DNA of 55,658 bases from Deltaproteobacteria bacterium RIFCSPHIGHO2_02_FULL_43_33 (lineage in GTDB: Bacteria; Desulfobacterota; GWC2-55-46; UBA9637), in contig MGRL01000069.1 in the NCBI GenBank assembly GCA_001798165.1, positions 1 to 55,658 of the forward strand, read 5' to 3'. This document shows positions 10,573 to 37,700 of the stretch, piece after piece (positions within the stretch are counted from its first letter, which is position 1; each line of letters opens with the position of its first letter). The position numbers and the translations under genes were made by a program. Under the pieces are notes generated by a model that was given only the letters and a program-made list of their open reading frames with translations, ran no database searches and was not told where the DNA came from.

Positions 10573-12952
<2,380 letters not shown>

Positions 12953-12956
<4 letters not shown>

Positions 12957-15267: not shown

Positions 15268-15294
15268 CAAGATAATCTAATGGGGGAGATTTAA

Positions 15295-15996: not shown

Positions 15997-15998
15997 CC

Positions 15999-17258: not shown

Positions 17259-17261
17259 AAA

Positions 17262-18176: not shown

Positions 18177-18247
18177 GGTTATGTTTTTTGGTATACTAAA
18201 AAAGTTGTTTTCCACAGAAATTTTTATGGGAGAGGAAAGGCATTATC

Positions 18248-20811: not shown

Positions 20812-20875
20812 CGAGGGTTAGAATCTCGCTGACCCGGTTTCTTATTTAAAGAATGGAGCTTGGACAATTCATCAA

Positions 20876-22306: not shown

Positions 22307-23759
22307 TCCAGGGATATTTCGCCAATACGACATCCGTGGCATTTTTAATAAAGACTTAACACCGCAAGCGGCTTATGCAATTGGCGCAGCATATGGAGCA
22401 TACCTTTTACGACTCAAAGGGTCAAAAGGGTTGAGGGTTAGTGTCGGCAGAGATGTAAGATTAAGCTCCCCTATCTTAAGAGATGCTTTAATAGAAGGAA
22501 TACTTTCAACAGGTATTGATGTTATAGATATTGGCGAATGTCCAACGCCCCTTCAGTATTTCTCTTTATTTCACTTGAATCTTGACGGTGGCATCATGAT
22601 AACCGGCAGCCATAATCCGCCGGAATTTAATGGATTTAAAATCAGCATCGGCCAGGAAACCATATACGGGCAGGCAATTCAGGAGTTGAGAAGGATAGTG
22701 GAAAGCAAGGGTCAGGAGTCAGGAGCCATAAGTCAGGAAAAAAAGGGGAAAATAGAATATTATAATATTGTTCCGGTGTATATTGATTACCTTAAGAAGC
22801 AGTTTTCAAAATACCCGCCGTCAAATAAACCTGCCGTTAAAGTTGTTGTTGATGCAGGAAACGGAACGGCAGGCCGTATGGCGCCGAAACTTTTGAGGGA
22901 GTTAGGTTGTGAAGTTGTTGAGCTTTTTTGCGACCCCAACGGCAACTTCCCCAATCATCACCCTGACCCCACTATCCCTGAAAATTTAAATGATTTAATA
23001 GCGGCAGTAAAAATACACAAAGCGGATTTCGGTATTGCTTATGACGGCGATGCAGACAGGATAGGTATTGTTGACGAAAAGGGGAAGATTGCCTGGGGAG
23101 ATCAGCTCCTGATAATATTTGCAAGAGATATACTTAAAAACTCAAAGCTCATCCCCTATAGCTTCAATCGGGGACAAAACTCAAAACCGACCTTTATCGG
23201 TGAGGTAAAATGCTCACAGGTTATGTATGATGAAATCAATAGGCTCGGCGGTAATGCCATTATGTGGAAAACAGGGCATTCTCTTATAAAATCAAAGATG
23301 AAAGAAACAGGCTCCGTCCTGGCGGGAGAGATGAGCGGACATATATTTTTTGCAGACAGATATTTCGGCTATGACGACGCAATTTACGCATCATGCCGAT
23401 TGGTGGAGATCCTTTCCGCGGAGCGGTTGCGCATTCCAAATGCCCCATTTTCCAGCCTCCTTTCCGGTTTGCCGGAAACCTATACAACTCCCGAAATAAG
23501 GGTTGATTGTCCTGATGAAGAGAAGTTTAAAGTGATTGACAGGCTATCTGAGGTTGTCAGTCAGGAAGATATGGGGATCAGGGGCATAATCAGGATTGAC
23601 GGCCTTAGATTAGTATTTGATAATGGGTGGGCGCTCATTCGGGCCAGCAACACACAACCTATTCTTGTTCTCAGGTTTGAAGCGACAACTGAAGAGGGGC
23701 TTGGGCAGATAAAAGAATCTGTGGAGAAAAAATTAAAGCAAGCGCTTTATCAAAAATAG
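22290..23759 (+). CDS. algC: Phosphomannomutase/phosphoglucomutase (AlgC/ManB type)
   Basis: FRQYDIRG, TGSHNP, DGDADR, GEMSGH, RASNTQP. Confidence 0.92.
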   Translation: MITTVNPGIFRQYDIRGIFNKDLTPQAAYAIGAAYGAYLLRLKGSKGLRVSVGRDVRLSSPILRDALIEGILSTGIDVIDIGECPTPLQYFSLFHLNLDGGIMITGSHNPPEFNGFKISIGQETIYGQAIQELRRIVESKGQESGAISQEKKGKIEYYNIVPVYIDYLKKQFSKYPPSNKPAVKVVVDAGNGTAGRMAPKLLRELGCEVVELFCDPNGNFPNHHPDPTIPENLNDLIAAVKIHKADFGIAYDGDADRIGIVDEKGKIAWGDQLLIIFARDILKNSKLIPYSFNRGQNSKPTFIGEVKCSQVMYDEINRLGGNAIMWKTGHSLIKSKMKETGSVLAGEMSGHIFFADRYFGYDDAIYASCRLVEILSAERLRIPNAPFSSLLSGLPETYTTPEIRVDCPDEEKFKVIDRLSEVVSQEDMGIRGIIRIDGLRLVFDNGWALIRASNTQPILVLRFEATTEEGLGQIKESVEKKLKQALYQK

Positions 23760-23802
23760 CGATTGATTTTTGGGGAAATAAATTAAATCGGAGGCTGATA
23801 GA

Positions 23803-24834
23803 ATGACTAAAAAAGCATTTATTACCGGCATAACCGGGCAGGATGGGGCGTATCTCACTAAACTATTGATAGAAAAAGACTACGAGGTTTATGGTGCCTT
23901 CAGAAGAACATCGGATTTGCATCTGAGCAGGCTAAAATTTTTAGGAGTGGATGACAAGATAAAGTTTATTCCTCTGGAGCTGCTGGAGTTTACCAATATT
24001 TACAGGGCAATGGAGAAGATACAGCCGGATGAAATATATAATCTTGGAGCGCAGAGTTTTGTTGCGCTGTCATTTGAGGAGCCGATATTTACTGCTGATG
24101 TGACGGGTGTAGGCCCTTTGAGAATTCTCGAGGCCATACGGGCGCTCAATCCAAAGATTAAGTTCTATCAGGCCTCTTCGAGTGAGATGTTCGGAAAGGT
24201 TCAGGCAATACCACAGAATGAAAAGACCCCGTTTTATCCAAGAAGCCCTTATGCAATAGCAAAACTTTTTGCCCATTGGACTACGGTAAATTATAGAGAG
24301 TCTTATAACCTTTTTGCATGTTCTGGCATTCTCTTTAATCACGAATCGCCGTTGAGAGGTTTAGAATTTGTTACAAGGAAGATAACAACCGGCGCGGCGC
24401 GTATCAAGTATGGGCTTCAGGATAAGATAGTCTTGGGAAATTTAGATACAAAAAGGGATTGGGGTTATGCCCCTGAATATGTAGAGGCTATGTGGCGTCT
24501 GCTCCAGCAACCTGAACCAGATGATTATGTCATAGCAACCGGAGAAACCCATTCTGTAAGAGAGTTTGTGGAGTTGGCCTTTGAGAAGACCGGTGTTAGG
24601 ATAGGATGGGAGGGTAAAGGTGTCGATGAAAAAGGAATAGATAAAAAAACAGGCAAAGTTGTTGTGGAAGTTTCTCCTGAATTTTTTAGGCCGGCTGAAG
24701 TGGATATTCTTATAGGAGATTATTCTAAGGCCAAAGAGAAATTGAAATGGCAGCCTAAAACCACATTTGAGGATTTGGTGAGTATAATGGTTGAGGCGGA
24801 TATCAAAATGGTTGAGAGAGATTTGAGAAAATGA
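23803..24834 (+). CDS. gmd: GDP-mannose 4,6-dehydratase
   Basis: ITGITGQDG, QASSSEMFG, YPRSPY, NHESPLRG, RDWG. Confidence 0.96.
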   Translation: MTKKAFITGITGQDGAYLTKLLIEKDYEVYGAFRRTSDLHLSRLKFLGVDDKIKFIPLELLEFTNIYRAMEKIQPDEIYNLGAQSFVALSFEEPIFTADVTGVGPLRILEAIRALNPKIKFYQASSSEMFGKVQAIPQNEKTPFYPRSPYAIAKLFAHWTTVNYRESYNLFACSGILFNHESPLRGLEFVTRKITTGAARIKYGLQDKIVLGNLDTKRDWGYAPEYVEAMWRLLQQPEPDDYVIATGETHSVREFVELAFEKTGVRIGWEGKGVDEKGIDKKTGKVVVEVSPEFFRPAEVDILIGDYSKAKEKLKWQPKTTFEDLVSIMVEADIKMVERDLRK

Positions 24835-24845
24835 GCCTTATCTAA

Positions 24846-24986
24846 CAGATTGTTGAAAAACTCAACAATCTCTGATTACACAGAGAAAAGATTAGATTAC
24901 ACAGATTGAAACTCCTTGAAATATCCGTGTAATCATCTTTTATAATCTGTGTAATCAAGGCTGTTGATGACTTTTTCAACAGCCTG
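24846..24986. mobile_element. MITE family B, copy 2 (diverged, CTAA target duplication)
   Basis: 141 bp with the same ends; CTAA at 24842-24845 and 24987-24990. Confidence 0.88.
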
Positions 24987-25009
24987 CTAAACTTGGTTGG
25001 GGGAAAATT

Positions 25010-26158
25010 TTGAGGATTGGCATAAATTCGCTTTTTCTCGTATCGGGTAAAGGCGGGGGCATAGAGAGGTATTTAAGAGGGCTCGTTGGCGGCCTGAAAA
25101 AGATTGATAAAAAAAATGAATATTTTATCTTTACCAATAGAAATTGCAGGGGTGCATTTGGATTTGGCGAAAACTTTCATGAGATATATTGCGATGTCTC
25201 TGCGGTTTTCAGGCCGGCCAAGATACTCTGGGAGCAGTTTGTCCTTCCATGGCAGCTGAAGAGGCATAAGATCGACATCCTTCTTTCTGCCGGCAACACC
25301 GCTCCTGTTGCGCATCGGTGTCCATCGGTGGCGATAATTTACGATATGATTCCGTTTATAAGGCCGGAGGGATTCAACACCATAGAGTTACTTGCATTAA
25401 AAACCTTGTTTTCGCTGACAGCAAAAACAAGTTCAAAGATTATAACGATTTCAAAATCCTCACAGGAGGAAATAGTCAAGAGATTGAAGGTGTCTCCTGA
25501 TAAGGTAGAAATTGTTTATGGGTCTTGCGATGAATATTTCAAGCCGGTTGGAGATAAAGGAAGGAGTGAACTCCAGAAGTACGGAATAAGCGGCGAATAT
25601 ATTCTTTATGTGGCTTCAAGCAGACCGTATAAAAATATAGATGGTTTGATTAAGGCATATAGAATTATGAAAGAAAGGCATCACATGGGGCACAAGCTGG
25701 TAGTCGTTGGCCTTGCAGGCAGGGCATATCCTGAACTTATGAAACTGGTGAAGGAATCGAAATTGGAGGGCGATGTCATATTCTGCGGCTTTGTCAATGA
25801 CGAAGACCTTCCCCTGTTGTATTCTCTATCATATGTCTTTGTGTACCCCTCCTTCTATGAAGGGTTCGGATTGCCGATACTGGAGGCAATGTCATGTGGG
25901 GTCCCGGTAGCGGCATCTCATGTTACCTCTATCCCAGAGGCTGTCGGTAACGCCGGTCTTCTCTTTGACCCGTATAATGTCGAAGAAATGGCAGAGGTTA
26001 TCTACCGTCTGATGATTGACAGTGGCCTGAGGGAATCATTGATACAGAAAGGGTATGAGTGGGTCAAAGAATTTTCATGGGAAAAAAGCGCAATGCGGGT
26101 TCTTGCAGTATTATCTGATACCTATACGGAAAATAGAATGTTTGGCAGGGGAATATAA
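25010..26158 (+). CDS. GT4 family glycosyltransferase
   Basis: RPYKN; YPSFYEGFGLPILEAM. Confidence 0.9.
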   Translation: MRIGINSLFLVSGKGGGIERYLRGLVGGLKKIDKKNEYFIFTNRNCRGAFGFGENFHEIYCDVSAVFRPAKILWEQFVLPWQLKRHKIDILLSAGNTAPVAHRCPSVAIIYDMIPFIRPEGFNTIELLALKTLFSLTAKTSSKIITISKSSQEEIVKRLKVSPDKVEIVYGSCDEYFKPVGDKGRSELQKYGISGEYILYVASSRPYKNIDGLIKAYRIMKERHHMGHKLVVVGLAGRAYPELMKLVKESKLEGDVIFCGFVNDEDLPLLYSLSYVFVYPSFYEGFGLPILEAMSCGVPVAASHVTSIPEAVGNAGLLFDPYNVEEMAEVIYRLMIDSGLRESLIQKGYEWVKEFSWEKSAMRVLAVLSDTYTENRMFGRGI

Positions 26159-26164
26159 AAGATT

Positions 26165-27292
26165 GTGAAGATCTGTTTTATTCTCGAATATTACCACCCC
26201 CATATCGGAGGAGTAGAATATCTCTTTAAAACGCTTACCGAAGGGTTAAGGAAAAGGGGATATGAAGTAACAGTCCTTACCAGAAGACTCAAAGGGACCA
26301 AGGGGCGAGAGTTTGTAGATGGGGTCAGGGTAATAAGGATTAGAACATTGAACAGGTATGTCTTTACTTTTTTTTCAATACCGTGGGCCATTTTTCTGGC
26401 AAGGGGTTGTGATATAATTCATACAACAACATTTAACGGCGCCTTTCCTGCGTGGGTTGCATCAAAGGTCTGGGGGATTCCGGCGGTAATCACCATCCTT
26501 GAGGTATGGCTCAAGAAATGGAGAATGCTTACGGATATGAACTGGCTTTCAGCCTTGGTGCATAATCTCCTTGAAAGGATGATATATTTGTTGAGTTTTG
26601 ATTTTTATGTAGCCATATCGCACTCCACAGAAAGGCAGCTCTCGAAAGTCGGCGTTCAGAAAGAACGAATGAAGGTGATTTACAATGGATTTGAGCATGA
26701 TTTTTTCAACCCTGAAAGGTACGATGGGGATATTGTAAGAGAACGATATGGCCTTAAGGATGCATTTATCTGTTTTTCCTGGGGAAGACCAGGGGTTTCA
26801 AAGGGCCATGAATATCTCATAATGGCTGTTCCTCGCATTGTTGAGAAAATCCCTCACGCCGTGCTTTTATTAATGCTCAGCGACAAAGAGACCTATCGGA
26901 GGAGATACCGGTACCTTATAGACCTTATTCGGAAACTTGAGGTCAGTAGCAAGGTGATACTGGTAGAACCGGTTCCCCGAGGGGAGCTTGGTTTTTATCT
27001 CAAGGCAGCTGATTGTATCGTTATACCATCTATTGCCGAAGGGTTTGGCTACGCAGCGCTTGAGGCATGTAGTATTGGGACGCCGGTTGTAGCATCGGAT
27101 ACCACATCTATTCCAGAGGTTATAGGTGGCAGATACGTCCTCGTTGAGCCGAAAAACCCTGAGGCTATTGCTAAAGGAGTTGAGAGTGTATATAAAGGCG
27201 AATACAGGACATCTGAATTAAAGGTTTTTCCCTGGGACAGAGCTGTAGCTGAATATATGGGTGTATATGATGCACTATCATCACAGGCTTGA
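26165..27292 (+). CDS. GT4 family glycosyltransferase
   Basis: PHIGGVE; GRPGVSKG; PSIAEGFGYAALEA. Confidence 0.9.
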   Translation: MKICFILEYYHPHIGGVEYLFKTLTEGLRKRGYEVTVLTRRLKGTKGREFVDGVRVIRIRTLNRYVFTFFSIPWAIFLARGCDIIHTTTFNGAFPAWVASKVWGIPAVITILEVWLKKWRMLTDMNWLSALVHNLLERMIYLLSFDFYVAISHSTERQLSKVGVQKERMKVIYNGFEHDFFNPERYDGDIVRERYGLKDAFICFSWGRPGVSKGHEYLIMAVPRIVEKIPHAVLLLMLSDKETYRRRYRYLIDLIRKLEVSSKVILVEPVPRGELGFYLKAADCIVIPSIAEGFGYAALEACSIGTPVVASDTTSIPEVIGGRYVLVEPKNPEAIAKGVESVYKGEYRTSELKVFPWDRAVAEYMGVYDALSSQA

Positions 27293-27294
27293 AG

Positions 27295-27996
27295 ATGCAT
27301 AAACTACTCGTCATAATGCCGGCCTATAATGAGGCTGAGAGCATTGGAAATATTATTCCAGCGGTCAAAAAAAACTTACCGTCTGCCGATATCCTTGTTG
27401 TCAACGACGGCTCGAAAGATGCTACGGCTGCTATTGCCAGAAGACTCGGAGCGCTGGTTACCGACCTTCCTTACAATATGGGCATAGGCGCTGCTATGCA
27501 GACAGGTTACAGCTATGCTGCATTAAATAACTATGATATAGCAGTACAGGTGGACGCAGACGGCCAGCATCCTCCTGACCAGATACCTTTCCTGATACAA
27601 CCGATTATGGAACAAAAGGCAGATATGGCTATTGGTTCAAGATTCCTTGGAAATGGCAATTATCGTCCTTCTTTGGCAAGAAATATCGGTATAAGGATTT
27701 TTTCCATGTTGTTATCTGCAATAACGAGTCAGAGGCTGACTGACACTACCTCTGGCTTCAGGGCTGTTAATAAAGGAGTAATAAAATTCTTTGCCAAAAA
27801 TTATCCTGAAGATTACCCGGAGGTAGAAGCTATTGTATTGCTTCGCAAGGCAAGGTTCAATATAATAGAAGTTTCTGTAAAGATGGAGGCAAGAATCGGT
27901 GGAAAGTCTTCCATTACACCTTTACATGCGGTTTATTATATGATAAAGGTGTTGCTGGCTGTATTGATAGATATTTTGAAAAAGGTGGAAAGGTAA
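27295..27996 (+). CDS. GT2 glycosyltransferase, DPM1-like (polyprenol-phosphate glycosyltransferase)
   Basis: MPAYNE, VNDGSKD, VDADGQH, GSRF, DTTSGFRA; paired with DUF2304. Confidence 0.85.
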   Translation: MHKLLVIMPAYNEAESIGNIIPAVKKNLPSADILVVNDGSKDATAAIARRLGALVTDLPYNMGIGAAMQTGYSYAALNNYDIAVQVDADGQHPPDQIPFLIQPIMEQKADMAIGSRFLGNGNYRPSLARNIGIRIFSMLLSAITSQRLTDTTSGFRAVNKGVIKFFAKNYPEDYPEVEAIVLLRKARFNIIEVSVKMEARIGGKSSITPLHAVYYMIKVLLAVLIDILKKVER

Positions 27997-28007
27997 AGGA
28001 AGGAAGG

Positions 28008-28079: not shown

Positions 28080-28457
28080 ATGCACTCTATCCAGATTGTC
28101 GCCATTATTATTAGCCTTGGTATTTTGATAAGCGTTGTAGACCTTATAAGACGGGGCATGCTGAAGGAACAGTATGCTATCCTATGGCTTGCATCAGCAG
28201 TTGTTTTATTGGTGCTCTCCATGTGGAGGGGGCTGTTAGATAATATTGCCCGCGCAACAGGTATCGCATATCCGCCGTCTCTTCTCTTTTTGGTGGCATT
28301 CCTGTTTCTTCTTTTAATCGTGCTGCACTTTTCCGTAATTATATCCAGCTTGAGCGAAAAAAACAAAAAACTCAGCCAGGAGATTGCAATATTCAAAACA
28401 TTTTTTGAAGAACATAAAAAAGAAGGAGGAAAAAATGAGCATAGAAAAGGTTTTTGA
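28080..28457 (+). CDS. DUF2304 family membrane protein
   Basis: Three TM helices, LKEQYAILW, GIAYPPS, LSQEIA; follows the DPM1-like GT2. Confidence 0.82.
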   Translation: MHSIQIVAIIISLGILISVVDLIRRGMLKEQYAILWLASAVVLLVLSMWRGLLDNIARATGIAYPPSLLFLVAFLFLLLIVLHFSVIISSLSEKNKKLSQEIAIFKTFFEEHKKEGGKNEHRKGF

Positions 28458-29673
28458 AAGTAAAAGGTTTCACCTGTGGGCAGGTCTGCTGATTGCAATA
28501 TCATCGCTTATAGTATATTCCAACACATTTCATGCCAGCTTTCACTTTGATGACACGCCGCAGATTGTGGAGAACTACAGCATAAGAAATTTAAGCAATT
28601 GGTTTGATATAGTGAGAGGGCAGCGCGGCATAGCAATGTTAACCTTTGCCATAAACTACGCCATAGGAGGGCTTAATGTTGCCGGCTATCACATCGTAAA
28701 TCTTGCTATTCATATCACAAACGGCATATTGGTATATTTTCTCATTTTTCTTACCCTTGGAACTATTGACCTGGGGACAGATTTCAAATCTGATAAAGCC
28801 AAAAAGATAGCTGTCTTTACTGCGCTGCTCTTCGCTGTTCACCCTATCCAGACCCAGGCTGTAACATACATTGTCCAGAGGATGGAAGCCCTTGCATCAA
28901 TGTTCATGCTCATCGGCATTTTATTTTTCGTAAAAGGGATAAAGGCATCAAACACATCTGCAAGGATACTCCTCTATGGGGCTGTAGCTGTTTCCTATCT
29001 TCTCGGTTTCTATTCCAAGGAGATGGCCATAACCCTGCCTGCCCTTATATTTCTCTATGACTACTGCTTTATCGCAGGCAATGATATAAAGAAACTCGCG
29101 CCCCGGCTGCCGTTATATGTTGTCTTGCTCATAATGCTGGCCTTTTTGGCTGCGCCAACCTTTACCGGCCTCAAAGAGACGCCTGGTGAATCAGTAGGTT
29201 TTGGCGTTCAGAGCATAACACCAAAGGAATATTTATTTACCCAGTTCAATGTGCTTATATATTACATCACCCTGCTCTTTGTGCCGATAAACCAGAACCT
29301 TGATTATGACTTTCCTATATCAAAAGGGCTTTTTGAGATTCCTGCTGTAAAGGACGGCACCATATTAAACTTCCCTATTCCGCCGGCCTTTATATCCCTC
29401 ATGATTATTCTATCTATTGTTGGGGTTGCCATTTACCTTTTTACACGTCACGCACAACGTATCACACAACATGGCCGTTTAATCGCCTTTTTCATATTGT
29501 GGTTTTTCATCATTCTTTCCCCTACATCAAGTTTTATACCGATAATAGATGTAATATTTGAGCACAGGCTCTATCTTGCCTCTGTCGGCTTTTTTGCGCT
29601 GTTCAGCCTTGCATTGGACAGATTTTTTGAATATCTGGAGCAAAGAAAGGATAAGGTTGGGGTTAAGGTGTAG
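28435..29673 (+). CDS. TMTC-like GT-C membrane glycosyltransferase, membrane half only (no TPR tail)
   Basis: FHFDD, YHIVNLAIH, LLFAVHPIQTQAVTYIVQR, SKE, EHRLYL; ends one helix after EHRLYL; GGAGG RBS. Confidence 0.8.
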   Translation: MSIEKVFESKRFHLWAGLLIAISSLIVYSNTFHASFHFDDTPQIVENYSIRNLSNWFDIVRGQRGIAMLTFAINYAIGGLNVAGYHIVNLAIHITNGILVYFLIFLTLGTIDLGTDFKSDKAKKIAVFTALLFAVHPIQTQAVTYIVQRMEALASMFMLIGILFFVKGIKASNTSARILLYGAVAVSYLLGFYSKEMAITLPALIFLYDYCFIAGNDIKKLAPRLPLYVVLLIMLAFLAAPTFTGLKETPGESVGFGVQSITPKEYLFTQFNVLIYYITLLFVPINQNLDYDFPISKGLFEIPAVKDGTILNFPIPPAFISLMIILSIVGVAIYLFTRHAQRITQHGRLIAFFILWFFIILSPTSSFIPIIDVIFEHRLYLASVGFFALFSLALDRFFEYLEQRKDKVGVKV

Positions 29674-29711
29674 GCTGAAAATTTCTTTACGCTTAACCTT
29701 ATAACCTTATT

Positions 29712-30353
29712 ATGTCAGCCTTAAGACTTACAATTTCTACAACCCTGCTGCTTCTTCTTTCCATTGCAACTTTTGAGCGAAATTACGTCTGGAATGACCG
29801 TATTGTCTTCTGGTCGGATGTGGCGCTAAAATCTCCCCACAGGACCCGCTCCCACAATAATCTGGGGTCTGCCCTCATAGCGGCAGGCCGCTGTGGTGAT
29901 GCCATGCCTTCACTCATGCAATCTGTTAAGATTGACCAATGGTATATAGAGCCGCATTACAATCTTGCTATCTGCTATGTTAAAAAGAATCGTTTTGACG
30001 CTGCAATACCTGAACTTGAAAAGGTGATTAGTATAAATGTTGTCTTGAAAAAAGGGCATTATGGGGTTTCAACAGCGCCCAGATTTGAGATGCAGGCGCA
30101 CTCAACTCTGGGCAACATATACAATATGAAGGGTATGTTTGATAAGGCTGTTTTCCATTTCCAAGAGGCGTTAAAATTATCGCCAAAAGACGCTGTTACC
30201 CGTTTCAACCTTGCATTGACATACGAGACGATGGGGATGTTAAAAGAGGCTAAGGCAGAGCTTGAAGAGGTTTTAAAAATAAACCCCATGGACGAAGGGG
30301 CAAAGAGGGGCATAAAAAGGCTTGGGGCGGCTGCTGATATGGGCAAACAGTGA
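29712..30353 (+). CDS. TM + TPR protein (TMTC C-terminal-half type) 1
   Basis: TM helix, then RNYVWNDRIVFWSDVALKSPHRTRSHNNLG, then TPRs. Confidence 0.82.
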   Translation: MSALRLTISTTLLLLLSIATFERNYVWNDRIVFWSDVALKSPHRTRSHNNLGSALIAAGRCGDAMPSLMQSVKIDQWYIEPHYNLAICYVKKNRFDAAIPELEKVISINVVLKKGHYGVSTAPRFEMQAHSTLGNIYNMKGMFDKAVFHFQEALKLSPKDAVTRFNLALTYETMGMLKEAKAELEEVLKINPMDEGAKRGIKRLGAAADMGKQ

Positions 30354-30366
30354 ATTCCGGCGGGTT

Positions 30367-30615
30367 TAATACAAACGCAATAATTAACAGTTTGTTGAAA
30401 AACTCAACAAACTCCGATTACACGGATAAAAGATTAGATTTCACAGATTAAAACCCATTGAAATATCTGTGTAATCGTTTTTCCTAATCTGTGTAATCAA
30501 GGCTGTTGATGCCTTTTTCAACAGCCTGTTAATTTGTAGGGCAAGCCTTCATGCTTGCTTATTTTGCAGGGCTAAAGCCCTGCCCTACGTCAATTTATTT
30601 AATTCGTCTGTATTA
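30367..30615. repeat. REPIN-like family C copy interrupted by MITE B
   Basis: Outer IR TAATACAAACG...CGTCTGTATTA; GTAGGGCAAGCC...GCCCTGCCCTAC core. Confidence 0.75.
30388..30528. mobile_element. MITE family B, copy 3 (TTAA target duplication)
   Basis: Appears identical to 6935-7075 by eye. Confidence 0.9.
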
Positions 30616-30738
30616 GTAACCGGCAGACGGCAGACAAGAAAAGATTCAAATGCAGCAGCATTGGTGTTTCGATATATTTTTATTGCATATTCCCGATTTT
30701 TTATGATAGGATAAGCAACGAATTAAATAATGTTACAT

Positions 30739-30788
30739 GTAGGGCGAGGCTTTAGCCTTGCTTAAGCAACCCTAAAGGGTTGCCCTAC
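30739..30788. repeat. GTAG-family REP doublet (core only)
   Basis: GTAGGGCGAGGCTTTAGCCTTGC-TTAA-GCAACCCTAAAGGGTTGCCCTAC. Confidence 0.8.
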
Positions 30789-30797
30789 TTGATTTTT

Positions 30798-31418
30798 ATG
30801 ACATCAAAAACAACAAAAAAAAAGCCAATCTCTGAAGATGCTATAAAGGTCCTTATTGCAGAGGATAATGCTGTTTCCAGAAAGTCTCTCTCCTCTCAGC
30901 TTGAATCACTCGGTTTTAATGTGGTTGCTGCGGCAGCCACAGGCGAAGAGGTATGCAGCCTCTTTCCTGAGCTTAAGCCAGACCTCATCATAATGGACAT
31001 TAAAATGCCGAAGATGGACGGCATAGAGGCTGCAAAGGTTATCACCAAACATGCCTCTATCCCCATAATCCTTGTAACAGGCCATTCCTCTGAGACTGTG
31101 ATTAGCAGGGCAATGGAGAGCGGCGTCGGCGTATTTGCCTATCTTTTAAAACCGATAACCAAAAAAGACCTGCTTCCTGCCATAAAGGTCGCCTTTGCCA
31201 GGCATAATGAATTTCAGACCCTAAAAAGCGAGTTCAGCGATTTAAAGGATGCCCTTGAGACAAGAAAGCTGGTTGAACGGGCAAAGGGCATTCTCATGAA
31301 ACGTCTGACCATCCCTGAGGATGAGGCATTTAAACTCCTCCAGACCCAGTCCCAAAAAGAAAACAAAAAACTTAAAGAAATAGCAGAGACCGTAATAACC
31401 GCAAGCAGGATGCTATAA
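30798..31418 (+). CDS. ANTAR-domain response regulator (REC-ANTAR; NasT/EutV/PdtaR type)
   Basis: IAED, IIMDIKMPKMDG, LLKP receiver motifs; LETRKLVERAKGILM...EDEAFKLLQTQSQ ANTAR domain. Confidence 0.93.
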   Translation: MTSKTTKKKPISEDAIKVLIAEDNAVSRKSLSSQLESLGFNVVAAAATGEEVCSLFPELKPDLIIMDIKMPKMDGIEAAKVITKHASIPIILVTGHSSETVISRAMESGVGVFAYLLKPITKKDLLPAIKVAFARHNEFQTLKSEFSDLKDALETRKLVERAKGILMKRLTIPEDEAFKLLQTQSQKENKKLKEIAETVITASRML

Positions 31419-31499
31419 ATAAATACAGACTATGGGCGATAGGCAATAGGCTATGGGTAAAGAGGACGATATATAAATACAGGCAATGGGCTATGGGCA

Positions 31500-31898
31500 A
31501 TGGGTAGAAAAGGCTTTAAAGATTTGATTGTCTGGCAAAAGGCTAAAGACCTCGCAGTTGCTATTTATAAACTGAGTGGAGGAGGAGATTTGGGGCGTGA
31601 TTTTGGCTTACGAGATCAAATTAGACGCAGCGCTGTAAGCATTGCCGGTAATCTGGCTGAAGGAGATGAACGAGATACCGACAAAGAGGCAGTTCATTCT
31701 TTCTATATTGCGAAAGGTTCCCTTGCTGAATTACAGAGCCAGATTCTAATTGCTTATGAGATTGGATATCTTAAAAAAGAGGTTTATGAGAATATTAGCG
31801 CAGATTACAGTGAATTGGGCAAAGTGATTGGTAAACTCATAAAATACAGGCGAGGGGCTATGAAGGCAGGCAATAGGCAAGAGGCGATAGGGCTATGA
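31500..31898 (+). CDS. Four helix bundle protein (23S rRNA IVP / bAvd-like family)
   Basis: FKDLIVWQKA, FGLRDQIRRSAVSIAGNLAEG, IAKGSLAEL; flanked by GGCWATR heptamer arrays. Confidence 0.9.
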   Translation: MGRKGFKDLIVWQKAKDLAVAIYKLSGGGDLGRDFGLRDQIRRSAVSIAGNLAEGDERDTDKEAVHSFYIAKGSLAELQSQILIAYEIGYLKKEVYENISADYSELGKVIGKLIKYRRGAMKAGNRQEAIGL

Positions 31899-31956
31899 GT
31901 TTTCCTATCGCCTATCGCCTGTATTTTTATATTCTTAATCTTTTTTAATTTTTTTC

Positions 31957-31984
31957 TTGACATATTTTAATTTTTAGGTAGAAT
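31957..31984 (+). promoter_or_regulatory. Sigma70 promoter of the cytochrome gene
   Basis: TTGACA (31957-31962), 16 bp spacer, TAGAAT (31979-31984); AT-rich upstream tract. Confidence 0.72.
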
Positions 31985-31994
31985 AGACCTTAAG

Positions 31995-32074
31995 TAAGCG
32001 CTGATGGCGGTGCTTATATTTAAAGTGCAGAGGTGATGGCGCCTCAGTGGCCGTAAGGCTTTTTGAGGTTTTTT
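31995..32074 (+). promoter_or_regulatory. ANTAR target RNA: twin hexaloop hairpins overlapping an intrinsic terminator
   Basis: TAAGCGCT-GATGGC-GGTGCTTA and GAGGT-GATGGC-GCCTC; terminator CCTCA...GGCC-GTAA-GGCT...TGAGG-TTTTTT shares the 3' arm of hairpin 2. Confidence 0.85.
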
Positions 32075-32121
32075 ATCTTTTAACCCAAGGCTTCGGTCTA
32101 AAAAATAAAAAGGAGGAAGGT

Positions 32122-33411
32122 ATGAAAAGACTTATTTTAATAGCCTTATTAGCACTTGGCTTAGGGTTTGGATTGACCCTGATGGCATCAACACCATCAA
32201 TGGCAGTTCACAAAGGTTCAGGCGATTTGACTTGCGGCAGCTGCCATACAATGCACAGCAGCCAGGGCGGCACATCTAGTCCTTCAATGGGCGGCGCAAC
32301 CGGCGCCCTCATCCTGCTGAGAAACTCGCTGGTCACAGGCAGAGAAACCATCCATCAGCTTTGCCTTCAGTGCCATGCAGCAGCTGGAACGCAGGGTGGT
32401 GTTCAGTTTAACGCCTGTCCCGGGACAGCTTGCACAACCCCGCCAAAGGTGTTGCTTACCTCAACCGATGCGTGGAATACGACTAAGGACTTTTCTACAA
32501 TCGGAGCAGGCGGCGACTTCCAATTTGTTGGAAGTTATGTTTCCGGTAGCTATAATAGCACTCAGGATGGCGGAACCGCACTCGGAAGAGGCCACAGCAT
32601 AGGAGGGACAGTCATCGCACCTCCAGGCAACGGTTCTACAGTGGGTACGATTGCAACGTTTAGCTGCACAACCTGCCATGACCCGCATGGAACATCAGCT
32701 ACGACCTCAACTATTAACATATACAGAAACCTTAAGGGAGGTATAGTGGCAGGGGCAACTGATAAAAATTGGTCAAATATGCTGACTAACGGTAATATAG
32801 GCACTTCTTATGTAGGCGGTCCAACTGGCGCTTCAGATGATAACAGCCTGGGAACAACCCCTACAGGTGGTTCTGGTATTGCCGCTTCAAACAATATTTG
32901 GCCGACGTATAGGTCATCTGGCACCCAGAATTCATATAGCACCAGTACTACTCCGCCAACCCTTGGTGGAACTGCTTTAACTGGTCTAGACGGCACCGGC
33001 TATACCCTTATGTCTGCATTCTGCGCCCAGTGCCATAGCTTATGGCATGAAAATGTAACAACAGGAAACAAGACCGGCTCTGATTGGAATAGGCACCCTG
33101 TGGACAACAGGATTTCAGATACCTCTTCTGCTTCAGGCGCTGGCGTAACCATTACAGACTTTACCCACTACAATACCAATATCGCAGCAGGTTTTAAACT
33201 CCCAGCTGCTAATGATGCTGGTAGTGCATTCTACTACGCAGATAACTCAGGCGACAAGGTTTTCTGTCTGTCTTGTCACTTTGCGCATGGCAGCCCATAC
33301 TATGACATCCTGAGATGGGATTACATAGCTCAGATAGATGCTGCTGGTGGCAGCCAGACCGGCAACGGCGTGGCATCAGTCAAAGGTTGTCAGCAGTGCC
33401 ATAACAGGTAA
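32122..33411 (+). CDS. Secreted hexaheme c-type cytochrome, OmcS-like
   Basis: Signal peptide; six CxxCH (CGSCH, CLQCH, CTTCH, CAQCH, CLSCH, CQQCH); OmcS-like motifs CxxCHTMH, GGDF, CxxCHDPHG, RHP, CLSCHxAH; AGGAGG RBS. Confidence 0.87.
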   Translation: MKRLILIALLALGLGFGLTLMASTPSMAVHKGSGDLTCGSCHTMHSSQGGTSSPSMGGATGALILLRNSLVTGRETIHQLCLQCHAAAGTQGGVQFNACPGTACTTPPKVLLTSTDAWNTTKDFSTIGAGGDFQFVGSYVSGSYNSTQDGGTALGRGHSIGGTVIAPPGNGSTVGTIATFSCTTCHDPHGTSATTSTINIYRNLKGGIVAGATDKNWSNMLTNGNIGTSYVGGPTGASDDNSLGTTPTGGSGIAASNNIWPTYRSSGTQNSYSTSTTPPTLGGTALTGLDGTGYTLMSAFCAQCHSLWHENVTTGNKTGSDWNRHPVDNRISDTSSASGAGVTITDFTHYNTNIAAGFKLPAANDAGSAFYYADNSGDKVFCLSCHFAHGSPYYDILRWDYIAQIDAAGGSQTGNGVASVKGCQQCHNR

Positions 33412-33420
33412 TACGCTGTA

Positions 33421-34182
33421 ATGTCATTGCAAGGAACTTTAGTTCCGAAGCAATCTGAAAAAGGGGGAAGGGAAACCTTCCCCCTTTTTTTCTTTATAGC
33501 CATCCTCGTTTCCTTTGTTTCCTTTCAAAGAAATATCGCATGGGATGAGGAATTGAGCATATGGCAGGATGCGGTTCGTAAGTCCTCTCATAAGGCAAGA
33601 CCACATAGCAACCTTGGCGCGGCCTTTGGAGGTAAAAGGCTTTTTCATGAGGGGGCAAGAGAATCCCGCATCGCCATATACCTGAACCCGTATCTTGCAG
33701 AGGCGCATAACAATCTTGGGAATATATATCTGGAGATGGGGTTGGCGCAGGATGCCTTGAAGGAGTTTCAAGATGCCGTTGAATTAGAGCCGTCGTTTGC
33801 AGTTGCCCATTACAATGCAGGGCTTGCATATAAGGCCATTGGCCTCATGGAAGAGGCTCAAAAGGAGTTTAAGAAGGCAGTTGAAATAAGGCCGTTCTAT
33901 GCAAAGGCCCATAATGAACTTGGCATGCAATATATGACAAATGGCATGTATGAGGCTGCTGTAACGGAATATAACAAGGCGCTGGAAGGCGATAATAGGT
34001 TTGCCCCAACGTATAATAACCGCGGGGTAGTTTATGCGCGGTTAGGCATGTGGGACAATGCCATCAAAGAGTTTCAAAAGGCCATGAGCATAGACCCTGC
34101 ATTAACCGAAGTAGAGAAAAACCTGAAAAAGGCGTATGCCAATAGAGAGGCGGCTGTCAGGAAGGCCGTAAAAAACCCTTGA
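33421..34182 (+). CDS. TM + TPR protein (TMTC C-terminal-half type) 2; start uncertain
   Basis: RNIAWDEELSIWQDAVRKSSHKARPHSNLG followed by TPRs. Confidence 0.78.
   Translation: MSLQGTLVPKQSEKGGRETFPLFFFIAILVSFVSFQRNIAWDEELSIWQDAVRKSSHKARPHSNLGAAFGGKRLFHEGARESRIAIYLNPYLAEAHNNLGNIYLEMGLAQDALKEFQDAVELEPSFAVAHYNAGLAYKAIGLMEEAQKEFKKAVEIRPFYAKAHNELGMQYMTNGMYEAAVTEYNKALEGDNRFAPTYNNRGVVYARLGMWDNAIKEFQKAMSIDPALTEVEKNLKKAYANREAAVRKAVKNP
33458..33491 (+). terminator. Intrinsic terminator after the cytochrome gene
   Basis: AAAAAGGGGGAAGG-GAAA-CCTTCCCCCTTTTTTT. Confidence 0.8.
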
Positions 34183-34203
34183 ACATATAAAGATTCTGCT
34201 GTA

Positions 34204-34308
34204 TATACTGAAAGCAATAAATAACTTGTAGGGCAACCCTTTAGGGTTGCTTATTTATGCAGGGCTAAAGCCCTGCCCTACGGCAAGTTATTTATTGCCG
34301 TTACTATA
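34204..34308. repeat. REPIN-like family C copy
   Basis: Near-identical to 2997-3099. Confidence 0.85.
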
Positions 34309-34367
34309 AAAAGAAATTTCACCCCTACCATCTCCTTTTACCAGAAAATGCTTCATATTCACATTAC

Positions 34368-34425
34368 CGTAACGTTGCCCTTTATAGGCAACGGTTTTTC
34401 GTTGGGGATAAACCCCAACACTACG
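34368..34425. repeat. REP doublet family D
   Basis: CGTAACGTTGCCCTTTATAGGCAACG...CGTTGGGGATAAACCCCAACACTACG; related copy in the opposite orientation at 49673-49727. Confidence 0.7.
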
Positions 34426-34494
34426 AAAATCCAATTTTCATGCCCTCCGCCAAAGGCGGATGAGCTACCAACTCATGTGGGTTTAGCGGCAAAT

Positions 34495-34524
34495 TTGACA
34501 TTGCGCACGTCTTTAATATATAAT
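34495..34524 (+). promoter_or_regulatory. Sigma70 promoter, probably giving a leaderless transcript
   Basis: TTGACA at 34495-34500, 18 bp spacer, TATAAT at 34519-34524; ATG 6 nt later with no SD. Confidence 0.7.
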
Positions 34525-34530
34525 TAAAAA

Positions 34531-35862
34531 ATGAAGCAAATCTATATAAGGTATATCGGCATTTTTTTGCCTTTCCTGTGCATCCTGCTTTGGTCTCCTC
34601 TTCCTGCTATGGGGGCCACCATACAATATCTTTTCAGTATAGACGTTATGGCAAGCGGACAGCCCTTTGTCGGCGTAAGCGCCCTCCTTATAGATAATAA
34701 AAACAGTGAATTGTATGCCCTGGATGATGGGAACAGGCGGCTGGTTATAATGAATCTGGAGGGGGTATTCTTGTATCAATTCACCTATACGGATGCGGGA
34801 ATTAAGAATATGCCTATAGGTATAGCAGTGGCTGATGACGGGAAGATATATATTGCTGAAGGAAAGAGGGTGGTAGTTGTCGATTACAGGGGTATGTATG
34901 ACCACGATATGTCCCTCTCTACTATTCCGGATGCAAATGAGATAAACATACAGTCCGTAGCCATAGATGGCAATACCGTCTACCTCGGCACTGTTGGCAG
35001 GGTAGTGATGATGGATAAAAAAGAAGAGAAATTTATTGCTGAATTTAAAGAGGGTCTGGGACAAAACAACTATATTGCCATGGATTACAACGGGATGTAT
35101 ATAAGAGATCCGGGCGCCCTTATTATCTTTCACCTGGCTAAGGACGGCAAAGTCCTTGGCCACTTTGGCAAGATATCAGGCCTTGCAGGTGGTTTTAGCA
35201 TGACCGTGGATATGGCAGTGGAAAGGAAGAAGGGGTGGGTTATTGTATTAGATATTAACAGGGCTGCAACTATATTTTTTGATAGAGAAGGCAATTTCCT
35301 CTTTGAGTTTGGCGGCCCCGAGCTCTTTAAATGGCCGAGGGCTGTTGCAGCAGACGATGAAGGCAGGATATATGTTACGGATGGAACAGGCAAGATAAGG
35401 GTTTTTCAGATAATAGAAGACGCCCCTGTAATTAAAGAAGCCAAACCCGAGTCAAAACCGGAAATACCATCTGCTGCCCCTCCTCCTGTATCTGAACCCA
35501 AAAAGGATGAGGTGCAGAAGATAGTTGAAGAAGAGGGAAGGCTGCTGCCTCTATTTTTTGCCATAGACAGCGCAAAACTTAAAAAGGCCGACCTTTTAAT
35601 CCTTGATAAAAATGCGGTATGGCTTAAGAAAAACCCTGACGCAAAGATAAATGTGAGAGGTTATGCAGACGAACGCGGCACAGATGAATACAATCTTACA
35701 CTCTCTAAAAAAAGGGCAAAGGCAGTAATGGACTACTTTGTAAAACAAGGCATAGACTCAAAGAGGCAGAAATTTATAGGCTATGGCAAGGAGCTTACAA
35801 CAGACAAGAGTGAAACGGGATTTGCAAGGTCAAGAAGGGTAGATTTTCTTGTAGTAAAGTGA
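34531..35862 (+). CDS. Exported NHL-repeat beta-propeller fused to an OmpA/Pal-like peptidoglycan-binding domain
   Basis: Signal peptide; PIGIAVADDGKIYI, WPRAVAADDEGRIYVTD; Pro-rich linker; GYADERGTDEYNLTLSKKRAKAV...SRRVDF. Confidence 0.85.
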   Translation: MKQIYIRYIGIFLPFLCILLWSPLPAMGATIQYLFSIDVMASGQPFVGVSALLIDNKNSELYALDDGNRRLVIMNLEGVFLYQFTYTDAGIKNMPIGIAVADDGKIYIAEGKRVVVVDYRGMYDHDMSLSTIPDANEINIQSVAIDGNTVYLGTVGRVVMMDKKEEKFIAEFKEGLGQNNYIAMDYNGMYIRDPGALIIFHLAKDGKVLGHFGKISGLAGGFSMTVDMAVERKKGWVIVLDINRAATIFFDREGNFLFEFGGPELFKWPRAVAADDEGRIYVTDGTGKIRVFQIIEDAPVIKEAKPESKPEIPSAAPPPVSEPKKDEVQKIVEEEGRLLPLFFAIDSAKLKKADLLILDKNAVWLKKNPDAKINVRGYADERGTDEYNLTLSKKRAKAVMDYFVKQGIDSKRQKFIGYGKELTTDKSETGFARSRRVDFLVVK

Positions 35863-35880: not shown

Positions 35881-36357
35881 ATGAAGATTTTACAGTTGTT
35901 TGGCAATATTGCAATGATTGTATTGATAGGATGTTACTCCATGGCAGCTGTAAAAAGAAACGTCGCATGGGGAAACGAGCATATCCTGACTACCGATAAT
36001 ATTTATAAGTCTCCCGGCAAGGCCAGACCCTATCTCAATCGCGGACTCTTCTACTTTAACAAAAACAGGATAGACGATGCCATCAGGGAATACCTGATAG
36101 CGCTTCAGCTTGACCCTGATTATGCCTATGCGCGCAACAATATCGGGGTTGCCTACTACAACAAAGGGTATCTGGATGCCGCAATAAAAGAGCTTACAGA
36201 GGCCATACGGCTGTCCCCTGGTTATGCCGAAGCGCATTATAACCTTGGGATAGCATATGGAGAAAAGGGTCTTGCCCAAGAGGCGTATATAGAGATAAAA
36301 AAGGCCATGGAACTTAATAAGAATCTTGCCGAAGAATTAAAATATTCAAAACCATAG
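35881..36357 (+). CDS. TM + TPR protein (TMTC C-terminal-half type) 3
   Basis: RNVAWGNEHILTTDNIYKSPGKARPYLNRG followed by TPRs. Confidence 0.82.
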   Translation: MKILQLFGNIAMIVLIGCYSMAAVKRNVAWGNEHILTTDNIYKSPGKARPYLNRGLFYFNKNRIDDAIREYLIALQLDPDYAYARNNIGVAYYNKGYLDAAIKELTEAIRLSPGYAEAHYNLGIAYGEKGLAQEAYIEIKKAMELNKNLAEELKYSKP

Positions 36358-36375
36358 GCATATCAGGATAATTAC

Positions 36376-37104
36376 ATGGAAGGCTCTGTGACAATAAAAA
36401 CACTATTTGCGTTTACCTGCATAATCCCCTTCCTTGCCTTTGTATCTTTCCAGAGAATAGCCGTTTATAAAAATGAGTTCACCCTCTGGGCAGATGTAGT
36501 CAAAAAATCATCTTTAAAGGCCAGGCCGCATAATAATCTTGCAGCCGTATATAAAGACAAAAAGATGTTTAATCTTGCGCTCAACGAATACATGGAAGCA
36601 ATAAGAGTTAACCCCGGGTATGCAGCCGGCCATGGTAATCTTGGAAGTATGTATTATGAACTGGGTAGACTTGATGAGGCTGAGACGGAAGTTAAATTAG
36701 CCCTGACTGCTAATACCCACTTTAAGGATCTGCTCCATAGACTACTGGGTCTTATATATATAAAAAAAGGGGCGCTTGATGAGGCGGCGAAGGAATTTAA
36801 AGAGGCTATAGCCATGATACCAAATTATCCAGATGCCAAGCGAAATATTGCAGTAATTTTCACTAACGAAGGATTTTTATACGCTGATAAGGGAGATTTT
36901 GAACGCGCCCTCGTGCTCCATAGAATGGCAGTTTTTGCAGATTCAGGATATCCTGATGCCCGCTATGGGCTTGCCCAGGCATACGAAGCTTTTGGCCAAA
37001 GGGAAGAAGCGATAAAACAGTGGCAGGAATACCTCAGATTAGCGCCATCAGATGAGCCGTTTAGGAAGGATGCAATGAAACATCTGGAGAGGTTGTGGGA
37101 ATAA
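36376..37104 (+). CDS. TM + TPR protein (TMTC C-terminal-half type) 4
   Basis: RIAVYKNEFTLWADVVKKSSLKARPHNNLA followed by TPRs. Confidence 0.82.
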   Translation: MEGSVTIKTLFAFTCIIPFLAFVSFQRIAVYKNEFTLWADVVKKSSLKARPHNNLAAVYKDKKMFNLALNEYMEAIRVNPGYAAGHGNLGSMYYELGRLDEAETEVKLALTANTHFKDLLHRLLGLIYIKKGALDEAAKEFKEAIAMIPNYPDAKRNIAVIFTNEGFLYADKGDFERALVLHRMAVFADSGYPDARYGLAQAYEAFGQREEAIKQWQEYLRLAPSDEPFRKDAMKHLERLWE

Positions 37105-37109
37105 TAGCG

Positions 37110-37700
37110 ATGCCTTTAAAATCCGAGCTGTTCTTTTTTGCCGCAGTAGGTATTATTTTTTCTATTGTCACATTTCAGAAAAATGTTTTATGGGGAAGCG
37201 AAAAAGGCCTATGGCTGGATATTCTGCAAAAATCACCATCCAAGGCGCGGCCGCACACTAATCTTGGCATGGCCTATGACCTTGATGGCAATATAGCCAA
37301 GGCAGAAGATGAGTATAACAAGGCTATACAATTAGAGCCTGATTATCTTGCCGCATATGCTCCTTTGGCAGTTATGTATGGAAAAAGAGGAGATGTGGAT
37401 AGAGCTATTGAGATGTTTTTGTGGCTTATACCAAGATTGCCTAATCGGGACCCCAAGGCACATACAGGTTTGGGGGTTGCTTACATGATAAAGGGGCTTT
37501 TGAAAGATGCAGAAAGGGAATTTCAGGAGGCATTAAAGATAGATCCAAATTATGAGATAGCACACTACAATCTCGCTGAGATTTATGGGCAGATGGGTTT
37601 AAAGGATGAGGCATTAAAGCATTATAAAATATTTATTGAAAATGCGCCGCCTGCGCAAAAGGAACTGGTTATAAAAATAAAAACAAACTATGGGTTATAG
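37110..37700 (+). CDS. TM + TPR protein (TMTC C-terminal-half type) 5
   Basis: KNVLWGSEKGLWLDILQKSPSKARPHTNLG followed by TPRs. Confidence 0.82.
   Translation: MPLKSELFFFAAVGIIFSIVTFQKNVLWGSEKGLWLDILQKSPSKARPHTNLGMAYDLDGNIAKAEDEYNKAIQLEPDYLAAYAPLAVMYGKRGDVDRAIEMFLWLIPRLPNRDPKAHTGLGVAYMIKGLLKDAEREFQEALKIDPNYEIAHYNLAEIYGQMGLKDEALKHYKIFIENAPPAQKELVIKIKTNYGL

Follow-up and report, generated by a model that had tools for sequence, protein, structure and literature searches.

An OmcS-superfamily hexahaem cytochrome of a distinct clade in an uncultivated groundwater bacterium, with a putative osc-type companion cluster

The cytochrome gene and its kinship with OmcS

We analysed the 55,658-nucleotide contig MGRL01000069.1 of Deltaproteobacteria bacterium RIFCSPHIGHO2_02_FULL_43_33 (assembly GCA_001798165.1; hereafter the window), which carries a gene for a c-type cytochrome, P0001, resembling the reference cytochrome nanowire OmcS of Geobacter sulfurreducens (GSU2504; PDB 6EF8 and 6NEF). 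Judged by its sequence, P0001 is a Sec-exported hexahaem cytochrome of the OmcS superfamily and belongs to a distinct clade from uncultivated, non-Geobacter bacteria of groundwater and sediment (Table 1). An initial annotation, made from the letters of the window, had described a 429-residue exported protein with six CxxCH sites in a motif order attributed to OmcS, and translation and signal peptide bear out the description of the protein. The six sites, at residues 38, 81, 182, 301, 382 and 423, lie within the order H30, C38GSCHTMH45, C81LQCH, G130GDF, G157H158, C182TTCHDPHG190, Y201RNL, M296S..C301AQCH...H309, R324HP, V380FCLSCHFAHGS and C423QQCH, with neither a CxxCK nor any other variant haem site. 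Because just 28 open reading frames (ORFs) of at least 60 residues in the 2.19-Mb genome hold two or more CxxCH motifs (11 of them six or more), six motifs in this order are beyond chance.

Translation probably starts at ATG 32122, which is preceded by the Shine-Dalgarno sequence AAGGAGG; the database representative P0002 (454 residues) uses an upstream GTG at 32047, would translate across the leader hairpins and is probably too long. P0001 is similar in size to OmcS (429 against about 432 residues), and both have a Sec signal peptide and an x-His N-terminus. The predicted cleavage between SMA and VH aligns with that between AFA and FH in OmcS; the solved OmcS chain starts at that F, and the mature N-terminus of P0001 (V29-H30) is in register with it. 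The mature protein (401 residues) consists of 14.7% Gly, 13.2% Thr and 10.7% Ser, together 38.6%, and contains an extra Cys pair, C99PGTAC104. Both features had been picked out at the start and both are present, but the Cys pair occurs in only 2 of the 40 homologues of a profile alignment (A1) and in 1% of 109 family rows, and is a local oddity of P0001 rather than a family trait. The doubled-CXXCH models PF09699 (45.1 bits, cut-off 20.6) and TIGR01905 (NCBIfam; 40.7 bits, cut-off 25.2) both match; they are generic and carry little functional information.

Homology to OmcS, likewise proposed in the initial annotation, is upheld by profile, pairwise and profile–profile comparison. P0001 has 346 homologues at E ≤ 1e-3 among 8000 candidates scored, all of them unnamed or labelled 'hypothetical'. 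Against the Protein Data Bank (PDB), the A1 profile (40 P0001 homologues, 411 positions) matched OmcS (6ef8/6nef) with E 5.5e-21, profile positions 36–399 of 411 pairing with chain residues 8–362 of 407, and this was the one distinct OmcS-family sequence matched in the 2026 PDB copy. The next match, to G. sulfurreducens OmcE (7tfs), is weak (E 0.021) and covers the first haem motif alone, in the N-terminal CxxCH-T-x-H-N region; OmcE has four haems and 232 residues, shows no significant similarity past that motif and is not a member of the same family, although it too is an insulated haem wire according to the literature. We used as OmcS reference genome (G038) one whose ORF matches all 407 residues of the PDB OmcS chain (E 1.2e-281). 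BLASTP aligned P0001 to this ORF with 110 of 450 positions identical (E 3e-11), and hhalign of A1 against an eight-row alignment of the OmcS clade (A3) gave a probability of 100% and E 4.1e-41 over 341 columns.

Within the HMMER, BLASTP and hhalign alignments OmcS follows the motif order initially attributed to it, the AxH N-terminus, CxxCHTMH, CLxCH, GGDF, GH, CxxCHDPHG, MSxxCxxCH..H, RHP and CLSCHxAH of the two proteins standing in register. Between haems 5 and 6 the clade of P0001 lacks about 30 residues relative to OmcS. Both proteins end in CxxCH, and this haem-6 motif is matched to OmcS only as a separate low-scoring stretch, the other P0001 sites being aligned directly to their OmcS counterparts. 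On these alignments it is near certain that P0001 is a genuine, if distant, homologue of OmcS.

Table 1. Features of the cytochrome gene, its flanks and its neighbourhood (positions in the window)
Feature	Position	Strand	Basis or remark
OmcS-superfamily hexahaem c-type cytochrome gene (P0001), 429 residues plus stop	32122..33411	+	Translation, 6ef8 profile match, hhalign
Sec signal peptide, residues 1-28, predicted cleavage between SMA and VH	32122..32205	+	Sequence, register with solved OmcS chain start
Haem-1 motif C38GSCH42 with T43-M44-H45	32233..32256	+	His45 equivalent to residue 16 of mature OmcS
Haem-2 motif C81LQCH85	32362..32376	+	100% conserved (109 rows)
His158 of GH motif, candidate distal haem ligand	32593..32595	+	99% conserved; aligned to OmcS KGH
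Haem-3 motif C182TTCHDPHG190, His189 candidate distal ligand	32665..32691	+	His189 100% conserved
Haem-4 motif C301AQCH305 with His309	33022..33048	+	His305 100%, His309 93% conserved
R324-H325-P326, His325 candidate distal ligand	33091..33099	+	His325 100% conserved; aligned to OmcS RHP
Haem-5 motif C382LSCH386 with His389	33265..33288	+	99% conserved; aligned to OmcS CLSCHRAH
Haem-6 motif C423QQCH427, close to C-terminus	33388..33402	+	98-99% conserved
Promoter-like site TTGACA-16-TAGAAT, 11/12 matches	31957..31984	+	Consensus match only; kept in locus L005
Leader: two hairpins with common loop UGAUGGCG, terminator-like hairpin, Shine-Dalgarno AAGGAGG	31990..32121	+	Sequence, fold
Strong terminator-like hairpin, 15 pairs and U-run, 46 nt past stop	33457..33490	+	
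Polysaccharide biosynthesis cluster	9259-28000		UDP-glucose dehydrogenase, epimerase, flippase, two methyltransferases, GT2/GT4 transferases
Multi-pass membrane protein, like the membrane domain of PMT_2/TMTC-type glycosyltransferases	28384-29673	+	
Separate TPR protein	29712-30353	+	Pfam
Response regulator with ANTAR RNA-binding output domain	30780..31418	+	Response_reg E 1.5e-27, ANTAR E 6.3e-22
23S-rRNA-IVS-family (Avd-like) protein gene	31500-31898		
TPR protein with one N-terminal membrane helix	33421..34182	+	Pfam TPR families
NHL beta-propeller with C-terminal OmpA-like peptidoglycan-binding domain	34531..35862	+	OmpA E 1.1e-18, NHL E 4.3e-8
Three more TPR protein genes	35881-36357, 36376-37104, 37095-37700	+	Pfam
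YchF, sodium-translocating pyrophosphatase, Pth, L25, Prs, IspE, NuoN, NuoM and Mrp-type subunits		-	After the TPR genes

Haem ligands, host and family tree

Conservation was assessed on 113 ORFs collected from fetched loci (300–559 residues, five to seven CxxCH and a CxxCH[TS][MIL]H motif), of which 109 were aligned once four duplicate rows (L097_430, L094_16748 and two L084 copies of the reference genome) had been dropped. C38, C41, H42 and H45 are present in every row. The motif histidines of haems 1, 2, 4, 5 and 6 (His 42, 85, 305, 386 and 427) are conserved in 98–100% of rows, and six histidines outside the motifs (45, 158, 189, 309, 325 and 389) in 93–100%; this conserved Cys and His set is common to OmcS, its paralogues OmcT and OscC (GSU2501), and P0001. 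His30 is found in 44% of rows, including OmcS, OmcT, OscC and the paralogues of P0001 in its own genome. The lower figures for the third haem motif (His186 in 47% and Cys185 in 61%) arise because the third motif of a distant clade is variant or shifted, and 40 of the 113 ORFs hold only five canonical CxxCH sites. In that distant clade (loci L042–L093) the third motif is variable yet the following His189 is conserved throughout, a pattern that suggests a variant third haem-binding motif.

In OmcS, by the published account, all 12 axial ligands are histidines, 11 from the same subunit and one, at haem 5, from the neighbouring subunit. Six conserved non-motif histidines for six haems in P0001 are consistent with bis-His ligation throughout. 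Doubled CXXCH domains are found in many multihaem cytochromes that act as enzymes or as subunits of enzymes, and P0001 does have NrfB- and DmsE-type NCBIfam matches, weak and far under their cut-offs. That P0001 itself works as a multihaem redox enzyme, such as a reductase in which a haem coordination site is open, is nonetheless exceedingly improbable: the six distal candidates leave no obvious five-coordinate catalytic haem, CxxCK or variant sites are absent, and the closest relative of solved structure is a wire and not an enzyme.

The His of CxxCHTMH had been proposed as a ligand shared between subunits. Counted from the alignments, His45 corresponds to residue 16 of the solved OmcS chain and is invariant, so the equivalence stands; residue 16 is probably the inter-subunit ligand of haem 5. 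The same His occurs in all paralogues of the reference genome, OmcT and OscC included, and of the host genome. Since it is shared by paralogues not known to polymerise, it is necessary but not discriminating, and alone does not predict polymerisation. Its failure to separate polymerising members is in keeping with an alternative in which P0001 would be a monomeric hexahaem carrier of the periplasm or cell surface, like OmcT, GSU2501/OscC and OmcJ, and the filament subunit would be another copy in the genome (on contig C65 or C59) or none. We regard this alternative as possible though unlikely.

The host genome (G000) is 93.9% complete and comprises 126 contigs and 2.19 Mb, the window being its contig C69. 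YchF, a marker already named in the initial annotation, shares 85% identity with that of a 'Deltaproteobacteria bacterium' metagenome-assembled genome (MAG), 83% with its counterpart in 'Nitrospinae bacterium RIFCSPLOWO2_01_FULL_39_10' and about 69–70% with Geobacter homologues, which places the host in an uncultivated lineage far from Geobacter. MAGs of this kind may fall within the GTDB candidate phylum UBA10199. Near-identical copies of the window occur in runs labelled groundwater or soil metagenome; seven holders in six coded studies carry no flag as possible sources, and they may stem from one campaign. The host also sets P0001 apart from OmcS, being a 2.2-Mb uncultivated groundwater bacterium.

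A tree built with FastTree from the 109 rows, with local support values only and a midpoint root chosen for display, contains three clades. Clade A (42 rows) holds the window protein and sequences from MAGs labelled Deltaproteobacteria, Nitrospinae, Thermodesulfobacteriota and Elusimicrobia; the OmcS clade (9 rows) holds OmcS, OmcT and OscC of the reference genome with a few others; and the third clade (58 rows) holds sequences from Desulfobulbaceae, Nitrospirota, Thermodesulfobacteria and others. OscC and OmcT, members of the same superfamily, therefore group with OmcS and not with P0001.

An osc-type cluster and a putative filament subunit

A role in folding, secreting and shaping OmcS nanowires has been proposed for the osc operon, and GSU2501, GSU2495 and GSU2494 are designated oscC, oscI and oscJ, respectively, in PMC13194489; the letters OscD to OscK given here to reference-genome ORFs are our inference from the locus tags in that text. 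The OmcS locus of the reference genome runs on one strand through an NHL gene, OmcS, OmcT, a 1035-residue spermidine-synthase-domain membrane protein and OscC, followed by eight genes: a YNCE-type propeller (OscD), a 729-residue protein with no Pfam match (OscE), two lipoproteins (OscF and OscG), a peptidyl-prolyl isomerase (OscH), cytochromes of 26 (OscI) and 10 (OscJ) haems, and an NHL propeller (OscK). NHL genes thus both flank omcS and end the osc block.

Searches with these proteins located OscD- to OscK-like genes on contig C48 of the host genome, all on one strand, in the order of the osc cluster (GSU2493–GSU2502) and with Pfam content that agrees with it. Reciprocal blastp confirmed the assignments, with E-values against the reference proteins of 4e-34 for the OscD-like, 6e-26 for the OscE-like (720 residues), 2e-23 for the OscF-like, 6e-16 for the OscG-like, 7e-18 for the OscH-like isomerase, 3e-135 for the OscI-like 26-haem cytochrome, 1e-53 for the OscJ-like and 1e-23 for the OscK-like NHL protein. 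The C48 block differs from osc in an inserted five-haem cytochrome, a 198-residue ORF and a second OscF/G-like lipoprotein, and its OscJ-like protein has 15 CxxCH sites against 10. It is further set apart by ResB- and CcsA-like System II cytochrome c biogenesis genes upstream and, downstream, by a three-haem cytochrome and a response regulator, after which come dnaX, recR and other housekeeping genes. Unlike in the osc cluster, the OscB-like genes are on a separate contig, C61 (L098), where two adjacent genes resemble the 1035-residue protein of the reference genome (32% identity over 809 residues and 28% over 663 residues).

All four relative clusters that we fetched (G147, G158, G163 and G145) show the block contiguously, as OscD-E-F-G-(five-haem cytochrome)-...-H-I-J-K, and continue through genes for a three-haem cytochrome and a response regulator to an OmcS-like cytochrome gene with an NHL or NHL/OmpA gene after it. 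A TPR gene comes next in G158, where the cluster from OscD to TPR on contig C53 spans about 19 kb. The tail of these clusters is the gene order of the window module; the window locus thus reads as the cytochrome end of an osc-type system, separated from the rest in the host genome or in its assembly. The hexahaem gene lies downstream of the block behind a regulator in these relatives and beside oscD, on the other side, in the reference genome. The initial annotation had called the gene context unlike that of Geobacter. This is true only locally: an NHL-propeller gene adjoins both omcS and the window cytochrome gene, the host carries osc-like machinery on C48, and the four relatives hold cytochrome and machinery together.

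Co-occurrence was scored in 41 related genomes, the host included (A1 match E ≤ 1e-30; OscE-like E ≤ 1e-10). The cytochrome is present in 16, an OscE-like gene in 18, both in 15 and neither in 22, counts that overstate independence because the genomes are kin and are suggestive only, which tempers their support for a filament. The cytochrome occurs without an OscE-like gene in G141 alone (88% complete), and the converse holds for G129 (84% complete), G132 (62% complete) and G133 (a weak match); G124, of the same genus as the host and 90% complete, matched neither query. The OmcS-like gene in 15 of the 18 genomes bearing an OscE-like gene resembles the pairing in Geobacter genomes, where GSU2501-like genes always accompany the eight-gene block GSU2500–GSU2493 according to published work.

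Considering these lines together, we think it likely, with appreciable doubt, that P0001 forms filaments as an osc-assembled, head-to-tail, haem-stacked subunit. The signal peptide and CxxCH sites point to Sec export and haem attachment in the periplasm. The OscD–K-like proteins would then fold the cytochrome, pass it through the outer membrane and assemble it, as suggested by homology, synteny, co-occurrence and the functions that published work proposes for Osc proteins. Subunits would polymerise head to tail, with His45 completing the haem-5 ligation of the neighbouring subunit as in OmcS, and the periplasmic multihaem cytochromes of the cluster would hand over electrons to them. The filament would serve extracellular electron transfer, its surface export, conduction and direction of electron flow being equally conditional.

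Several observations weigh against a filament subunit of the OmcS type. At the level of sequence, a phmmer search with the P0001 sequence alone failed to find OmcS in the PDB at E up to 10, Pfam and NCBIfam yield solely the generic doubled-CXXCH domain, BLASTP identity to OmcS is just 24%, and hhalign leaves the last ~30 residues unaligned. The AlphaFold2 (AF2) model of P0001 is of middling confidence (predicted local distance difference test score, pLDDT, 67.8; predicted template modelling score, pTM, 0.71), with pLDDT below 50 at residues 23–66 and most of 383–414, the stretches of His45 and haem 5. Foldseek returned no PDB match for this model; the control fold of OmcS from the eight A3 sequences was itself unusable (pLDDT 30.4), so the ability of the pipeline to recognise an OmcS fold is not established. 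A complex prediction run without controls on two copies of residues 29–429 with A1 and four haems scored 0.00 against a mark of 0.42, which speaks neither for nor against binding. Within the genome, the hexahaem gene on C69 is not linked to the osc block, which on C48 gives way to housekeeping genes, in an assembly of 126 contigs; there are three full-length family copies (on C69, the window, and on C65 and C59) besides a 206-residue fragment on C27; and the osc-linked copies of relatives are 36–43% identical to all three full copies, so that identity does not tell the three apart. In G. sulfurreducens, moreover, wire formation is known for OmcS alone and not for OmcT, GSU2501 or OmcJ, and GSU2501 and OmcT have no reported filament.

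The paralogues and their gene order bear most directly on a non-polymerising role. In the tree the three full copies each have a separate orthologous partner in the sister MAG 'Deltaproteobacteria bacterium GWF2_42_12', so that each has been kept for some role, and together with the separation of cytochrome and osc block in the host this counts towards a carrier that does not polymerise. Against such a carrier, only the window copy of the three keeps the order regulator, cytochrome, NHL/OmpA, TPR found in the osc-linked relatives. The C59 copy is at a contig end, and the C65 copy (C65:430-9364, L097) is followed by an NHL propeller with Flg_new_2 and by cytochromes of 5 haems (490 residues) and 13 haems (1448 residues), a locus that is possibly a second module for extracellular electron transfer. 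Synteny makes the window copy the best of the three candidates for the subunit linked to osc. The co-occurrence of three conserved paralogue lineages in the host and GWF2_42_12, and of two to four family copies in several relatives, would also fit a minor or specialised part for P0001 (tip, base or alternating partner) in a filament made mainly from another OmcS-like paralogue. We consider this very unlikely, because the solved OmcS filament is described as a homopolymer in the literature and nothing points to hetero-polymers in the family.

The fragment on C27 (C27:2283-2903; positions 1456-2076 of L004) comprises the C-terminal half only, with haems 4–6 and three CxxCH, and is probably a truncated family copy; ORFs upstream of it resemble, by eye, a nucleotidyltransferase/HEPN-type pair.

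Expression signals, neighbouring genes and place in the family

The cytochrome gene is framed by signals of its own, a promoter-like site 137 nt upstream of its start and a hairpin past its stop with a folding energy of -41.8 kcal/mol (z = -5.9, equalled by none of 200 shuffles). Although consensus matches only, they are as expected for an abundantly made structural subunit and count against a monomeric carrier. The hairpin at 33457-33490 also falls inside the predicted start of the TPR ORF at 33421-34182, its U-run encoding part of the membrane helix, and either partial read-through or a TPR gene start elsewhere therefore follows.

In the leader, the 5′ arm of the terminator-like hairpin, which has a U-run, overlaps the second of the two UGAUGGCG hairpins. 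These elements hardly vary between the window and the orthologous locus L005, even though the two proteins are only 58% identical, and an ANTAR regulator copy 81% identical to that of the window precedes the orthologue in L005/L104. Arrangement and conservation suggest ANTAR-type antitermination control of the cytochrome through its leader. The exact motif, two copies of TGATGGCG, precedes 2 of the 113 family genes, those of the window and of L005, and is lineage-specific rather than a family feature. An Rfam scan of 30300–34600 gave no family at gathering score and no listed match within the leader.

Between regulator and leader lies the 23S-rRNA-IVS-family gene, a homologue of which was found in none of 82 other loci. 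Within 31415-31932, inverted repeats (31469-31500 and 31901-31932, 81% complementary) bracket the gene, as do direct repeats of a AAATACAGGC..GGGC unit, and it resembles a small cassette that has been inserted between the regulator and cytochrome genes. A reading of this Avd-like gene as part of a diversity-generating retroelement was dropped, its support being the short flanking repeats only, with no reverse-transcriptase ORF seen nearby. Palindromic intergenic repeats resembling repetitive extragenic palindromes (GTAGGGC..GCCCTAC-type; families D1 and D3) occur at 30530-30601, 30733-30801, 34222-34294 and 34398-34437. They are oppositely oriented around the regulator-to-TPR block, and the arms at 30763-30799 and 34217-34253 are 89% complementary.

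Further upstream, the polysaccharide cluster includes three radical-SAM enzymes (11490-12956, 18248-19396 and 19306-20811), the first and third with a B12-binding domain. The multi-pass membrane protein at 28384-29673 has no Pfam match; Atlas leads connect it to PMT_2 and TMTC_DUF1736 clusters (0.96-0.97), with structural matches (template modelling score 0.8) to longer TPR-carrying proteins. Because most of these look-alikes are single longer proteins with C-terminal TPRs, the pair at 28384–30353 is maybe a split form. At least two of the four further short TPR proteins of the window share with that at 29712 an N-terminal membrane helix and RNxxW motif.

Homologues of the 28384-29673 membrane protein lie close to the cytochrome in 3 of 82 loci, and 13 of the 29 clade-A genes that could be assessed have an NHL gene at most 3 kb downstream (10 of 39 had too little flank). 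We have considered whether clade A represents a distinct nanowire variety of a non-Geobacter groundwater lineage, in which the Thr/Ser/Gly-rich subunit would be O-glycosylated by the neighbouring split PMT_2/TMTC-like membrane protein and its TPR partners, the NHL-OmpA neighbour would tie the base of the filament to peptidoglycan and, in the host and its sister MAG, the ANTAR regulator would switch production through a two-hairpin antiterminator in the 130-nt leader; as a whole we regard this as improbable.

OmcS homologues occur in diverse bacteria according to the literature, and the title of the 2025 paper by Shen et al. calls the osc machinery 'widespread and ancient'. As homologues and machinery are already described as widespread, the P0001 gene opens no new category. 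By its sequence it adds to this widespread family a member in a distinct clade, one marked by low identity to OmcS, Gly/Thr/Ser richness, a hexahaem gene placed behind a regulator on the downstream side of the osc block, and an NHL-OmpA neighbour. The value of P0001 lies in its being a well-defined test case, a protein at 24% identity to OmcS that yet keeps every Cys and His ligand, in a small-genome uncultivated groundwater bacterium with the whole companion cluster. Its relatives unite cytochrome and machinery in one cluster of about 19 kb that could be moved to a tractable host; Shewanella oneidensis is reported to have expressed OmcS filaments (10.1101/2023.10.26.564108). In such a host the cluster could address whether the eight-gene block assembles wires from any OmcS-like hexahaem protein, and would also reveal which sequence features decide polymerisation.

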